This document shows, piece after piece, positions 469 to 5,458 of a stretch of DNA of 5,458 nt. The first letter of the stretch is position 1; each line of letters begins with the position of its first letter. The notes under the pieces are model-generated. The model was not told the DNA's origin. It saw only the letters and a program-made list of their open reading frames with translations, and ran no database searches. The DNA is taken from positions 1-5,458 of the forward strand of contig NJBF01000103.1 of NCBI GenBank assembly GCA_003144275.1, given 5' to 3'. The position numbers and the translations under genes are program-made. Origin of the DNA: Candidatus Heimdallarchaeota archaeon B3_Heim (GTDB lineage: Archaea > Asgardarchaeota > Heimdallarchaeia > Hodarchaeales > Hodarchaeaceae).

Positions 469-489
469 TAAGATCACCTGCCTTTTTAA

Positions 490-549
490 TAGTCGTTAGT
501 ATATGGTTAGCGTATAGCACATAGCAAAAAGCGCAAAACGTAAAACTGT
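490..549 (+). repeat. Degenerate heptamer tandem array
   Basis: TAGTCGT TAGTATA (TGGT) TAGCGTA TAGCACA TAGCAAA AAGCGCA AAACGTA AAACTGT: 7-nt periodic units drifting in sequence. Confidence 0.6.
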
Positions 550-607
550 AACTCAAAATTAAAAACCTTTTCCGTATTACTCATTGAGGTATCGCTTGAA
601 GATTTAT

Positions 608-646
608 CCCCCTCACTCTAATCCTCTCCTTCAAAGGGGAAAAGGA
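608..646. repeat. Degenerate pyrimidine/purine REP-like element
   Basis: CCCCCTCACTCTAATCCTCTCCTTCAAAGGGGAAAAGGA is an imperfect hairpin in otherwise AT-rich DNA. From recall it resembles the dispersed CCCTCACCCTAACCCTCTCCC...GGGAGAGGG intergenic repeat; not verified by search. Confidence 0.4.
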
Positions 647-698
647 ATAAACTTAAAACTATTAACTGGATAACTAATATCCTATCGGCTATATATTA

Positions 699-723
699 TT
701 CTGACTTCTGGCTACTGTCTTCT
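699..723 (+). repeat. Short heptamer array
   Basis: TTCTGAC TTCTGGC TACTGTC TTCT. Confidence 0.55.
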
Positions 724-736
724 AAATTCTTTTTTC

Positions 737-771
737 TTCACTATTCACTATTCACTAACGACTAACGACTA
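737..771 (+). repeat. Heptamer tandem array (5 units)
   Basis: TTCACTA x3 followed by ACGACTA x2. 761-773 (ACTAACGACTATT) is the exact reverse complement of 488-500 (AATAGTCGTTAGT). Confidence 0.9.
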
Positions 772-775
772 TTTT

Positions 776-2966: not shown

Positions 2967-3039
2967 ATAAATTTTGTATTTCGTATCTCGCGAAGATAAC
3001 AAAAATCGAGAATCAGAATAAATTCAAAATAAAAACTCC

Positions 3040-3062
3040 GTAGGACAGGCGTCTCGCCTGTC
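3040..3062 (+). repeat. GTAG-type REP element, copy 1
   Basis: GTAG + GACAGGCG-TCT-CGCCTGTC (8-bp perfect palindrome directly after the GTAG tetranucleotide). Confidence 0.75.
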
Positions 3063-3067
3063 TACAA

Positions 3068-3091
3068 GGGCACAATTCATTGTGCCCCTAC
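3068..3091 (-). repeat. GTAG-type REP element, copy 2 (different sequence, opposite strand)
   Basis: Minus strand GTAG + GGGCACAAT-GA-ATTGTGCCC (9-bp perfect palindrome), 5 nt from copy 1. Confidence 0.75.
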
Positions 3092-3147
3092 AGTCAGTAC
3101 ATAACTATAATATATTAATAAAGAAGAGATTAATATTGTAATTAATA

Positions 3148-4299
3148 TCAGTCGGAAGTTAGGGGGTTCGAAGAAGAAATAGGGTTAGCTTCCATTCTCA
3201 CTCTCAAGGGACCCGTACTCCAAGTATCATAAATTGAGATTACTGTAACTTTCATTATTGTACCCGATTCTACAATAGTCTTTACTGTATTATATAGATT
3301 AACTGCTGATATGGATCCTACAAAACTGGATTTGGGATCAGGAATGATTCCTCTCCCTACTGCCAAAATATTTACTTTTCTTAAAAGAGTTAAAAGTTCT
3401 TTTTCCACTTCGCCAGGCACTTTAAAACTTTCAATTTCCCATGAAATAATTTCTTCGTCTATTTTAAAGACTAATTTATTCTCCAAGGTTTTAAAATGTG
3501 CTGCTATAGGTTCTCCTTCAACCACGTTTATTGAAGATAAAAGTCTCACTATCATCTCTTTATCACTATCATATATCTTCTGTACTATATCTTCGAATTC
3601 ATTTTGAGCGATAATGAACACCTGATTGGTTCGCTCATCCTTTTTAGCTCCCATGACTAATACTTTATTGGAAGCTTCGTTCAAAAATCTAATTAACTCT
3701 TTCTTTATTTCTTCAATCGGCCTTTGCCCTTGAATAATAGTCAGCGCAATCTGTTCGTCCGACCCAAAAATAACCTCTCCTTCTCTAATCCAGGCAATTC
3801 CAGAGTAAAGAGCTTTTATGGTGGCATTTAATTCTTCTACTTCTTCAGCCAGCTTCTCTTTTTCTTCTATCAAACTTTCCCTAATCATCAACAATTCTTC
3901 TAATTGACCTGTTTTATTTTTTATGTCTTCAGATAATTCCTGATATTTCTCTTCCATTTCCTGTAATTGAGTAGTTTTTTCCTTTAGGTCTTCTTTGGTA
4001 GAGGATAGCTGCATGTTTCTTAACTCTACTTCCCGGGATAAATTGGAAAGTTTTTCCTTTAACTCCTCCATTCCGAATAGGGCGGTTCTAACATCATTAG
4101 AGGAGATAGCAAGTATGGTTACTGTAATAATGGCAATTAAAATACCACTAATTATAGTGATAAATATTGCTGTAGAGTGTGGGCGCAAGCCAAAGATAGT
4201 TACTCTTTTTTTGCCTATTTTAAGGCCTACCCAGTCACCAACAAAAGCTATTAAACCACTGATTATGATAACTGTAAATACTAAAATAAGACTGTACAT
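3148..4299 (-). CDS. DUF3084-family protein (N-terminal transmembrane helices + coiled coil + C-terminal soluble domain)
   Basis: 383 aa. N-terminal GLIAFVGDWVGLKIGKKRVTIFGLRPHSTAIFITIISGILI matches the pattern I recognise for DUF3084. Heptad-rich E/K/L segment at about residues 75-165. SD AAAGGAG at 4316-4310. Confidence 0.8.
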   Translation of the reverse strand: MYSLILVFTVIIISGLIAFVGDWVGLKIGKKRVTIFGLRPHSTAIFITIISGILIAIITVTILAISSNDVRTALFGMEELKEKLSNLSREVELRNMQLSSTKEDLKEKTTQLQEMEEKYQELSEDIKNKTGQLEELLMIRESLIEEKEKLAEEVEELNATIKALYSGIAWIREGEVIFGSDEQIALTIIQGQRPIEEIKKELIRFLNEASNKVLVMGAKKDERTNQVFIIAQNEFEDIVQKIYDSDKEMIVRLLSSINVVEGEPIAAHFKTLENKLVFKIDEEIISWEIESFKVPGEVEKELLTLLRKVNILAVGRGIIPDPKSSFVGSISAVNLYNTVKTIVESGTIMKVTVISIYDTWSTGPLRVRMEANPISSSNPLTSD

Positions 4300-4328
4300 G
4301 TCTTTTGGACTCCTTTCAGTCGTCCGTT

Positions 4329-4368
4329 TAGTTAGTTACTTAGTTAGTTGGTTAACTGGTTAGCTAGT
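4329..4368 (+). repeat. Octamer tandem array A (5 units)
   Basis: TAGTTAGT TACTTAGT TAGTTGGT TAACTGGT TAGCTAGT. Confidence 0.9.
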
Positions 4369-4412
4369 TAAGAATACAAATACAAGAAACATGACAATAC
4401 AATTTACCAATT

Positions 4413-4469
4413 AATTTGGTTAGCTGGTTACTTAGTTAACTGGTTAACCGGATTAACTAGTTAGCGGGT
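4413..4469 (+). repeat. Octamer tandem array B (about 7 units)
   Basis: AATTTGGT TAGCTGGT TACTTAGT TAACTGGT TAACCGGAT TAACTAGT TAGCGGGT. Confidence 0.9.
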
Positions 4470-4515
4470 TAATGTTAGTTCACCAGATTTTCTAACCAAA
4501 AAATACTAAAAATAC

Positions 4516-4935
4516 TTAAAGATACTGTTGGATTTGTTCATTAATTTTTGTTGTTTTTGGGTAAGTTTTTACTTGTGATCTTAAATAAGTAATTAATTTA
4601 TTAATTGACATAGATATTTTCTGTGCATGATTATAAATAGTTTCGAACTCTTCCTTATTAATATAGTTTAGGTCTAAAGAAATGTATAGATCGTTTTGTA
4701 CTTCGGATATCGAAGCTCGAGATATTATTAAAAAATTTATAAATTCTTTTGTTGATCTTCTGTTAAATCCTTCAGCAATATTGGACATGATGGAAACTGA
4801 AGCTCTTCTTATTTGCGAAGTTAAACCATATAATTCTTCTTTTGGGAATCTTTTAGATAAGATATAAATTCTATTAGTAAGTTCTCTCGCTTCCTGCCAA
4901 ATAGTCAGCTCTTCAAATGATTTTACAGTTGGCAT
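4516..4935 (-). CDS. Four helix bundle protein (23S rRNA intervening-sequence protein family, TIGR02436/PF05635-like)
   Basis: 139 aa with family motifs SFEELTIWQEA, FPKEELYGLTSQIRRASVSIMSNIAEG, STKEFINFLIISRASISE. SD-like AAGGGA 7 nt before the ATG. Confidence 0.93.
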   Translation of the reverse strand: MPTVKSFEELTIWQEARELTNRIYILSKRFPKEELYGLTSQIRRASVSIMSNIAEGFNRRSTKEFINFLIISRASISEVQNDLYISLDLNYINKEEFETIYNHAQKISMSINKLITYLRSQVKTYPKTTKINEQIQQYL

Positions 4936-4982
4936 ATGAAGTTCCCTTCATTATATTTCTACTTTATTTCTTTGCAAATTTC

Positions 4983-5013
4983 TAACCAGCTAACTAAGTA
5001 ACCAGCTAACTAA
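4983..5013 (-). repeat. Octamer tandem array C, inverted relative to A and B
   Basis: Plus strand TA ACCAGCTA ACTAAGTA ACCAGCTA ACTAA; its units are exact reverse complements of the TAGCTGGT and TACTTAGT units of array B. Confidence 0.9.
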
Positions 5014-5014
5014 T

Positions 5015-5458
5015 TCACAGATTAAATCTTTCCCCCAGATAGATTTTGCGGGTGATTTCACAATTAGCTACGTGACGGGGAGTTCCTGAAGTCAGTATTT
5101 TTCCATTATGCATAATATAAGCTCTATCGGTAATTTTAAGAGTCTCCCTCACATTATGGTCGGTAACTAATATCCCCAACCCTTTTTCTTTTAGATAAGA
5201 AATTATTTCCTGAATGTCATAAACCGCAATAGGGTCAACTCCGGTAAAGGGTTCGTCAAGCAACATAAAAGAAGGTGAACTGGTTAAAGTTCGGGCTATT
5301 TCTACCCGGCGTCTTTCCCCTCCGGAGAGCATATATCCTTTGTAATCAGCGAGATGGTCTATTTCTAACTCCTTTAATAAAGAATAGCACCTTTCTCTCT
5401 GTTCATCTCTTTTGACTCCCAACGATTCTAAAATTAGAAGGAGATTTTCTTCTACAGT
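5015..5458 (-). CDS. lptB: LPS export ABC transporter ATP-binding protein LptB (3' part, starts outside the window)
   Basis: Frame is open to the window edge (TVEENLLLILESLGVKRDEQ...). ABC signature LSGGERRRVEIAR, Walker B MLLDEPFTGVDPIAV, H-loop GILVTDHNVRETL and C-terminal RKIYLGERFNL are all LptB-typical. Confidence 0.92.
   Translation of the reverse strand, partial: TVEENLLLILESLGVKRDEQRERCYSLLKELEIDHLADYKGYMLSGGERRRVEIARTLTSSPSFMLLDEPFTGVDPIAVYDIQEIISYLKEKGLGILVTDHNVRETLKITDRAYIMHNGKILTSGTPRHVANCEITRKIYLGERFNL

Follow-up and report, generated by a model that had tools for sequence, protein, structure and literature searches.

The stretch of DNA analysed here, referred to as the window, comprises all 5,458 nucleotides of contig NJBF01000103.1 in assembly GCA_003144275.1 (a 5.5-kb contig, C42 of G000), which belongs to a 3.9-Mb metagenome-assembled genome (MAG) labelled Candidatus Heimdallarchaeota archaeon B3_Heim and carries five genes, all on the minus strand. 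Between lptB and a downstream gene for a DUF3084 protein, a small four-helix-bundle gene of the PF05635/TIGR02436 family is enclosed by a long inverted repeat composed of tandem octamers; this element is probably, at an estimated probability of about 0.62, one copy of an insertable hairpin cassette that resembles both the intervening sequences (IVSs) of 23S rRNA and the REPIN/RAYT system (REP doublets forming hairpins, where REP denotes a repetitive extragenic palindrome, and REP-associated tyrosine transposases). Such a cassette would comprise an intact PF05635 gene and its leader, with an inverted array on either side whose 7- or 8-nt unit is particular to the lineage; in the window, gene and arrays are wedged exactly between the stop codon of lptB (5015-5017) and the DUF3084 ribosome-binding site, in the same direction as the operon. 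PF05635 and TIGR02436 describe a very common bacterial family with solved structures, for which we know of no function, and heptamer and octamer repeats between genes have long stood out as a peculiarity of prokaryotic genomes; the locus ties PF05635 genes to intergenic 7-8-nt repeats in JS1-type Atribacterota with unusually clean evidence.

The two arms were located by a repeat finder at 4416-4446 and 4983-5013, as 31-nt segments of 94% complementarity lying 536 nt apart. When one arm is compared with the reverse complement of the other, 29 of 31 positions are identical, the differences falling at positions 3 and 24 and leaving an uninterrupted core of 20 nt; in RNA transcribed from the minus strand, the arms would form 29 Watson-Crick pairs, one G:U pair and one A.C mismatch. 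A first-pass annotation of the stretch had described the same repeat of octamer arrays, together with 30 of 31 RNA pairs closing a 536-nt loop around the gene, and both descriptions agree exactly with the repeat finder and with the letters. The arms are tandem arrays of period 8 or 16, with period 8 over 4417-4472 and period 16, at 100% matches, over 4983-5013. The inverted-repeat score is 26, compared with a maximum of 12.5 over 100 shuffles, and the arm duplex is calculated at -47.6 kcal/mol, compared with -13.4 +/- 3.2 kcal/mol for shuffled arms; the pairing of the arms is far beyond chance. In the minimum-free-energy fold of the whole region (-142 kcal/mol, z = -3.1), the 5' arm is paired with the distal array and not with the proximal arm, and 30 kcal/mol are lost when the 5' arm is blocked. 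One strain variant, a metatranscriptome contig, lacks 4404-4499, which is the proximal array.

Table 1. Coordinates of the features of the window
Feature	Position	Strand	Remarks
orf159	1-477	minus	unassigned open reading frame (ORF)
Gene-less hairpin in the SLH-orf159 gap	488-773		TAGTCGT/TAGTGAA heptamer arms (clade-B type); period 7 at 737-771
SLH-domain protein gene	894-2549	minus	
DUF3084 membrane/coiled-coil gene	3148-4299	minus	downstream host gene; PF11283, 2.1e-26
Ribosome-binding region of the DUF3084 gene	4300-4318	minus	directly after the cassette; common to relatives with other gap contents
Distal 3' array	4319-4378	minus	second possible partner for the 5' arm (27 nt, 89%), with a duplex of -34.5 kcal/mol
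Spacer between the two 3' arrays	4379-4410	minus	
Proximal 3' array	4411-4475	minus	includes arm 4416-4446; duplex with the 5' arm -47.6 kcal/mol
Four-helix-bundle gene	4516-4935	minus	139 aa, intact; PF05635, TIGR02436
Leader of the cassette gene	4936-4982	minus	AT-rich; purine-rich Shine-Dalgarno-like stretch just 5' of the ATG
5' arm (on the transcript)	4983-5014	minus	four octamer units of YTRGTTAV type, the first one base after the lptB stop
lptB, 3' part	5015-5458	minus	lipopolysaccharide export ATP-binding-cassette ATPase; contig ends within the gene; TIGR04406, 2e-59; PF00005

As judged from its genes, the contig is a fragment of a JS1-type member of the Atribacterota that was mis-binned in an Asgard MAG. 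The genes for LptB, the SLH protein and the DUF3084 protein are bacterial in type; the DUF3084 protein is 77-88% identical to those of 17 loci, nearly all of which are labelled Atribacterota in their assemblies, and lptB is 93-97% identical to its counterparts in Atribacterota MAGs. Because of this mis-binning, paralogs and relatives were sought in the Atribacterota, the relatives being the 17 DUF3084-related loci plus loci that were found later. A paralog survey within the MAG itself was of little use, since the MAG is mostly that of an Asgard archaeon; it contains two further family matches, both on other small contigs.

Comparison of the relatives indicates that the cassette gene is not fixed between lptB and the DUF3084 gene, as the first-pass annotation had anticipated, and that near-empty alleles, gene-less alleles and other cassette lineages are found in the same gap. 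At L007, the gap measures 35 nt and holds no gene, being made up of three AATTGGTN octamers that include the Shine-Dalgarno GGAG. Eleven further relatives have gene-less gaps, two of 58 and 82 nt and nine of 153-410 nt, the latter being filled with nested inverted arrays and small hairpins. A tblastn search found no gene remnant at E<=0.01 in the gene-less gaps or in 488-773. The filled alleles belong to three clades of the protein tree; a clade A cassette is present in the window and in L005 (98%), L044 (96%), L043 (93%) and L018 (83%, with a frameshift), a clade B cassette whose protein is 47% identical and whose arms are TAGTCGT/TAGTGAA heptamers is present in L014 and L065, and a clade C cassette with AGTATTG arms occupies L058 and L063. 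In the DUF3084 tree there are three well-supported sister pairs, and the gap state differs within each of them. When L018, which has a cassette, is compared with L016, which has a gene-less gap of 229 nt, the flanking genes are 94-96% identical to within about 6 nt of the gene ends, and the entire lptB-DUF3084 spacer is unrelated. Separately, in the shortest spacers, those of L007 (3966-4000) and similar gaps (L015, L017), the last unit, AATTGGAG, contributes the Shine-Dalgarno sequence of the DUF3084 gene, and the CCAATTNN cassette lineage (L024, L048) has 3' arms of this AATTGGTN type.

The association of gene and arms extends across the phylum. Matches to the window protein were obtained in 46 of 86 Atribacterota genomes, some 130 altogether with a maximum of nine in one genome, and 40 distinct copies with enough flank were surveyed for arms, a copy being counted as enclosed at an inverted-repeat score of at least 16 on a scale that leans toward ungapped repeats. 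Enclosure by an inverted repeat of period 7 or 8 was found for 23 of the 40 copies (57.5%), as against 4 of 460 control ORFs (0.9%) from two Atribacterota genomes (Fisher p 5e-25). The protein tree gives each clade its own arm unit, namely YTRGTTAV, TAGTSRW, AGTATTG, AGCGTAN, ACAGAAN, CCAATTNN, GTATATC or AGTATCG, so that the inverted short-repeat arrays, suspected beside the paralogs at the first reading, do accompany them with a unit particular to each lineage. Moreover, the cassette gene is co-directional with 40 of 41 upstream and 34 of 35 downstream neighbours and opposite to both in no copy; neighbouring genes in these genomes are co-directional at a background rate of about 86%, and an insert of random orientation would be antisense half of the time. 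Some observations stand beside this survey. At G084:C1:204330-208397, three four-helix-bundle matches lie within 4 kb of one long contig, one of them with internal stops and none with strong arms in the scan. At C71:5400-7226 (L002), which holds one of the two further family matches in the MAG of the window, three GTGAAAG-type heptamer arrays in alternating orientation, the third 1.2 kb off, bracket first a four-helix-bundle copy whose family match is interrupted by a TAG and next a signal-peptide gene, about 1.1 kb long and unrelated. Genes of PF13366 (GxxExxY/PDDEXK_3) are framed by short repeated words, such as CACAGAT-type heptamers, at L132 (G056:C1) and L133 (G002:C83); such nuclease genes were considered as an alternative cargo and set aside, being present in two of five relatives but flanked by other words. 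The idea that the 7- or 8-nt units supply stop codons in three frames was likewise dropped, several arm types having no stop triplet.

Copies at other positions in the genome bear on whether the gene and its arms travel together. A clade B copy lies directly after polA (L064) and another between an extracytoplasmic function (ECF) sigma factor gene and a zf-HC2 anti-sigma gene (L056), and a clade-A-like copy (74% protein identity) occupies the ECF sigma/anti-sigma gap of another genome (L046). Between L014 in the lptB gap and L064 after polA, the nucleotide identity is 88.6% over 447 nt and is confined from arm to arm. On these alignments, gene and arms occur as a unit at different sites, which agrees with the self-contained unit proposed by the first-pass annotation, and gain and loss among relatives is evident at two sites, the lptB gap and the sigma gap. 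In the latter, among the 24 alleles that have both the sigma and the anti-sigma gene, 22 are without a four-helix-bundle gene and 2 are filled. The gap of L109 is fully empty, the stop codon TAG being followed directly by a promoter-like TTGAAAC...CGTA motif, and in both filled alleles the cassette lies exactly between the sigma TAG and this motif. Every cassette compared has its 5' arm starting 0-3 nt beyond the stop codon of the upstream gene, and in L064, L056 and several gene-less alleles the stop codon of the host gene falls within the first repeat unit. The sigma gap is of some interest in its own right: L102-L116 share a conserved TTGAAAC(N16-17)CGTA motif, typical of ECF-type promoters, between the sigma and anti-sigma genes; solo arrays, like cassettes, insert exactly between the sigma stop codon and the TTGAAAC motif; and in some genomes AGCGNAT arrays overlap the final sigma codons and provide the stop.

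Arrays of the same kinds are far more numerous without a gene. A-type arrays were counted as three consecutive octamers with one mismatch allowed, the reversed pattern serving as the control; up to 490 matches per genome were obtained, about equally on the two strands, compared with 0-11 for the control, and about 45 genomes of the phylum have zero A-type matches. B-type heptamer arrays reach 266 matches per genome. The genome-wide family surmised by the first-pass annotation is therefore present, in Atribacterota as the true host lineage. Wherever nearby opposite-strand pairs of arrays were checked, the forward array precedes the reverse one, with the same polarity as around the gene. A census of hairpins by TRF (Tandem Repeats Finder) and an ungapped inverted-repeat scan, over 200 kb of G040 and 348 kb of G003, found few because the arrays are imperfect and register-shifted, and pattern counts were used instead. 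The hairpin at 488-773 of the window, which the first-pass annotation had taken for a repeat-bounded remnant, is better described as a gene-less hairpin; its arms are those of a different lineage, clade B, and tblastn detected no gene remnant in it. The relatives have clade-A-type or other hairpins at the corresponding place. In the same SLH-orf159 gap of L010 (7700-8340), an insert of about 640 nt, in which no long ORF was noted and no Rfam family matched at gathering score, splits a GGGG/CCCC palindrome that is intact in the window at about 600-640.

The enclosed gene is intact and clearly a member of the family. Its 139-aa product matches PF05635 at 2.2e-39 (134.4 bits against a cut-off of 33.8) over residues 8-112 and profile positions 1-105 of 106, and TIGR02436 at 9.3e-37 (125.6 bits against a cut-off of 24). 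The RxxxSxxxNxxE core is kept, as R44, S48, N52 and E55 in the translation, and the leading G of the published family motif is offset; RxxxSxxxNxxE lies in the motif reported for the PF05635 family (PMC3936711). Matches to PDB entries 2GSC (2.6e-22) and 2RLD (3.4e-06), each with five chains, show that the protein is homologous to these pentameric four-helix bundles, and it may itself form a ring. The ratio of nonsynonymous to synonymous substitution (dN/dS) is 0.15-0.27 for the window gene against close relatives and 0.10-0.28 over 12 pairs of cassette proteins, values by which the cassette gene is judged to be under purifying selection.

Several known systems invite comparison. The PF05635 family first came to notice inside rRNA intervening sequences; Ralph and McClelland reportedly described, in 1993, ORF-bearing intervening sequences in Leptospira 23S rRNA. 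In the S23p IVS of Coxiella burnetii (Warrier et al. 2016), a 28-bp stem is cut by RNase III, the ORF is preceded by tandem heptamers, the first of which coincides with the site in the stem where RNase III cuts, and the ORF is reported as decaying (PMC4990558). The window cassette shares with the rRNA IVSs the protein family, the position of the ORF in the loop of a long terminal-inverted-repeat stem, an overall size of about 430-600 nt and the lack of an encoded mobility enzyme. It differs in lying in the gap of a protein-coding operon and not in 23S helix 45, which with helices 9 and 25 is a seat of IVSs in 23S rRNA genes, and it has no rRNA match; no rRNA was detected by Rfam at gathering score in the window or in 17 related loci. 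Unlike the decaying Coxiella ORF, the cassette gene is intact and under purifying selection, and its repeat units are octamers with two alternative 3' arrays. Furthermore, excision by RNase III has been demonstrated for the rRNA copies, whereas for the cassette it would be a proposal.

With the REPIN/RAYT system, the cassette shares the arrangement of one small gene flanked by inverted repeat copies together with many gene-less intergenic hairpins, which lie mostly between co-directional genes, and a repeat type that goes with the gene lineage. However, RAYTs are HUH/Y1 transposase-like, whereas the enclosed cassette gene matches PF05635 only, and we know of no catalytic site in the four-helix-bundle protein. 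The cassette arms are tandem arrays of 7-8-nt units, whereas REPs are single imperfect palindromes of about 20-35 nt; moreover, several cassette lineages coexist in one genome. In contrast to insertion sequence elements and miniature inverted-repeat transposable elements (MITEs), the cassette encodes no transposase, and the empty and filled junctions compared show no target-site duplication. Diversity-generating retroelements have an accessory protein, Avd, which is a four-helix bundle that forms pentamers and binds nucleic acid or the reverse transcriptase. The cassette protein is like Avd in its distantly related four-helix-bundle fold, the homology between the PF05635 family and Avd having been discussed (PMC10053308); it differs in remaining under both curated cut-offs (NF033474, 1.3e-04, 22.3 bits against 80; PF22296, 2.6e-05, 25.1 against 40), and the window contains no reverse transcriptase and no template or variable repeat.

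Short intergenic repeats of comparable size have been described without a gene partner, namely the tandem 7-nt TAACTGA repeats of Beggiatoaceae (PMC4679880) and the GGGNATC repeats of Xanthomonas and Nostoc (PMC4692102), as well as other intergenic heptamer repeats (PMC2700814). The TAACTGA and GGGNATC repeats resemble the present arrays in having two to a few 7-nt units, in being strongly intergenic, mostly between co-directional ORFs, and in lying close to start or stop codons. They differ in being described mainly as direct repeats, with regulatory or G-quadruplex readings, and the text searched links them neither to PF05635 genes nor to inverted pairing. A full-text search of the literature returned no paper in which PF05635 genes are connected with inverted 7-8-nt arrays other than in rRNA; a PF05635 gene has been noted in cas loci, with no mention of arms (PMC3936711).

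A mechanism compatible with these comparisons can be outlined. The cassette gene would be expressed by read-through from the host operon, because no terminator was found inside the cassette and the promoter-like match in the leader does not exceed chance (5 such sites, 3.5 being expected). On the transcript, the arms would pair into a stem of about 30 bp that is a candidate substrate of RNase III, given that this enzyme cuts PF05635-family copies inside 23S rRNA (PMC4990558). The putatively ring-forming protein may recognise its own repeat units; in consequence, the gene would relate to the gene-less hairpins as RAYT genes relate to REPINs. Between strains, the filled allele spreads via ordinary homologous recombination at the locus. 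A wider proposal is that PF05635 pentamers are putative sequence-specific partners of the 7-8-nt tandem-repeat hairpins scattered over many bacterial genomes, each lineage reading its own unit and maintaining or spreading its own cassette and gene-less hairpins in a REPIN/RAYT-like manner with no recognisable transposase; this proposal is tentative, and we consider it possible rather than likely. If true, it would account for the long-noted excess of 7-8-nt intergenic repeats and for the origin of ORF-bearing rRNA IVSs.

A number of results weigh against the insertable hairpin cassette. As the first-pass annotation had stated, the element encodes no transposase or reverse transcriptase, and no recombinase was found inside it either; no target-site duplication was found at the comparable empty (L109) and filled (L102, L107) junctions, and no cassette movement was seen among near-identical strains. 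No strong inverted repeat was obtained for 17 of the 40 surveyed copies under the ungapped-leaning score. A recent cassette-only transfer between the window and L005, suggested by a synonymous divergence (dS) of 0.06 in the cassette compared with 0.34-0.45 in the DUF3084, SLH and orf159 genes, was rejected, for in a sliding comparison near-identity extends past the cassette through roughly 400 nt of the DUF3084 gene before falling to 80-88%. The tract is the product of ordinary homologous recombination and not of a cassette-limited event; since it enters the flank, strain-to-strain exchange uses the conserved flanks, and the case for insertion of the unit itself is carried by the different-site evidence only. 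The RNA-library contigs described below carry no information on ends, cleavage or an excised RNA. Finally, both array types occur at tens per Mb even where the cognate gene was not found, and shared ancestry and incomplete MAGs such as G055 confound the link of array density with gene lineage. The link itself speaks for the cassette: the median A-type density is 192 per Mb with a clade-A gene and 36 without (p = 0.0004), the B-type density is 71 per Mb with a clade-B gene and 42 without (p = 0.011), and the cross-comparisons of each array type with the non-cognate gene lineage give p = 0.58 and 0.42, a pattern that fits a gene with non-autonomous copies.

This last set of figures bears directly on the view that the arrays are an intergenic repeat system of the host (REP-like mRNA stabilisers, attenuators or recombination-prone simple repeats) that turns over independently and in which the gene is a passenger without a functional tie between protein and arms. 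Gene-less arrays exceed the genes by one to two orders of magnitude and are met with even in genomes that yielded no cognate gene, various array types and further small hairpins are nested in one another in the gaps, array units overlap and even provide host stop codons, and gene-unlinked intergenic heptamer repeats are in print (PMC4679880, PMC4692102). A mere passenger, however, would hardly be under purifying selection, nor is it easily reconciled with an enclosure that is about 60-fold enriched for PF05635 genes over ORFs of the same genomes, with an arm unit that follows the gene lineage across insertion sites, or with an array density that tracks the cognate lineage and not the other; the host-repeat view is therefore regarded as unlikely. 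A strict IVS, in which the stem is cut, the gene loop is removed from the mRNA of an essential operon and the element spreads with trans-acting help, perhaps by way of an RNA intermediate, appears quite improbable. The strength of the stem, the strict co-orientation with host transcription, the lack of a terminator inside the cassette, the RNase III genes present in five relatives and the RNase III excision of the family's rRNA copies (PMC4990558) speak for it. However, RNase III does not rejoin the flanks, and lptB would be separated from the downstream gene; because the operon mRNA would be severed and not spliced, the suggestion of the first-pass annotation that the element is tolerated in the operon through being cut out of the mRNA is neither needed nor supported, and a co-oriented, terminator-less gene is tolerated in an operon anyway. 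In addition, there is no linked reverse transcriptase, the Avd equivalog score is 22 against 80 bits, and the short joined forms in RNA libraries occur in DNA too.

Sequencing runs supply the evidence on these joined forms and on the integrity of the contig. The window stretch is present in cold-seep and sediment metagenomes and partly in lake metatranscriptomes, the six metatranscriptome runs being available as assembled contigs without starts, ends or strand. RNA-library contigs cover the gene body (4500-4931) at 95-99% identity. Joints 4447>4984 and 4361>4983, with 25-26 other letters between and sides of only 20-33 nt, could be taken for products of RNA excision; this was rejected, as a DNA run likewise contains joints between these two arrays, and the joined forms are read as gene-less hairpins from other loci. 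The summed contig depth is 10-50 times higher in array bins, which indicates multi-copy sequence. An assembly chimera, produced because short repeats mislead metagenome assemblers, might be suspected from this depth, from a short contig in the wrong bin and from the breaks of related contigs at arrays (L004, L005, L006, L044). The order lptB-cassette-DUF3084 nonetheless recurs in assemblies made independently by different projects, the gap being bridged completely in L018 and one of its junctions in each of L005, L043 and L044; DNA-run contigs cover the junction of the 3' array with the 3' end of the gene (4345-4551) and the gene body (4522-4908), and the coding sequence is intact and conserved; a chimera is accordingly a very remote prospect. 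For annotators and binners, the hairpin cassette carries a caution, in that the arrays break assemblies and overlie the stop codons and ribosome-binding sites of essential operons.

Beyond the cassette itself, an Rfam search at gathering score came back empty for the window, for L010 and for 17 cassette loci, and PADLOC gave no meaningful match. Downstream of the DUF3084 gene, at 3038-3100, lies a small GC-rich hairpin of GGACAGGCG...CGCCTGTC type, which recurs in the lptB gaps of L004, L011, L013 and L015. Similarly, a second hairpin in the L016 gap has a copy at a different site in L018, and these two kinds of hairpin look like separate MITE-like families nested among the arrays.

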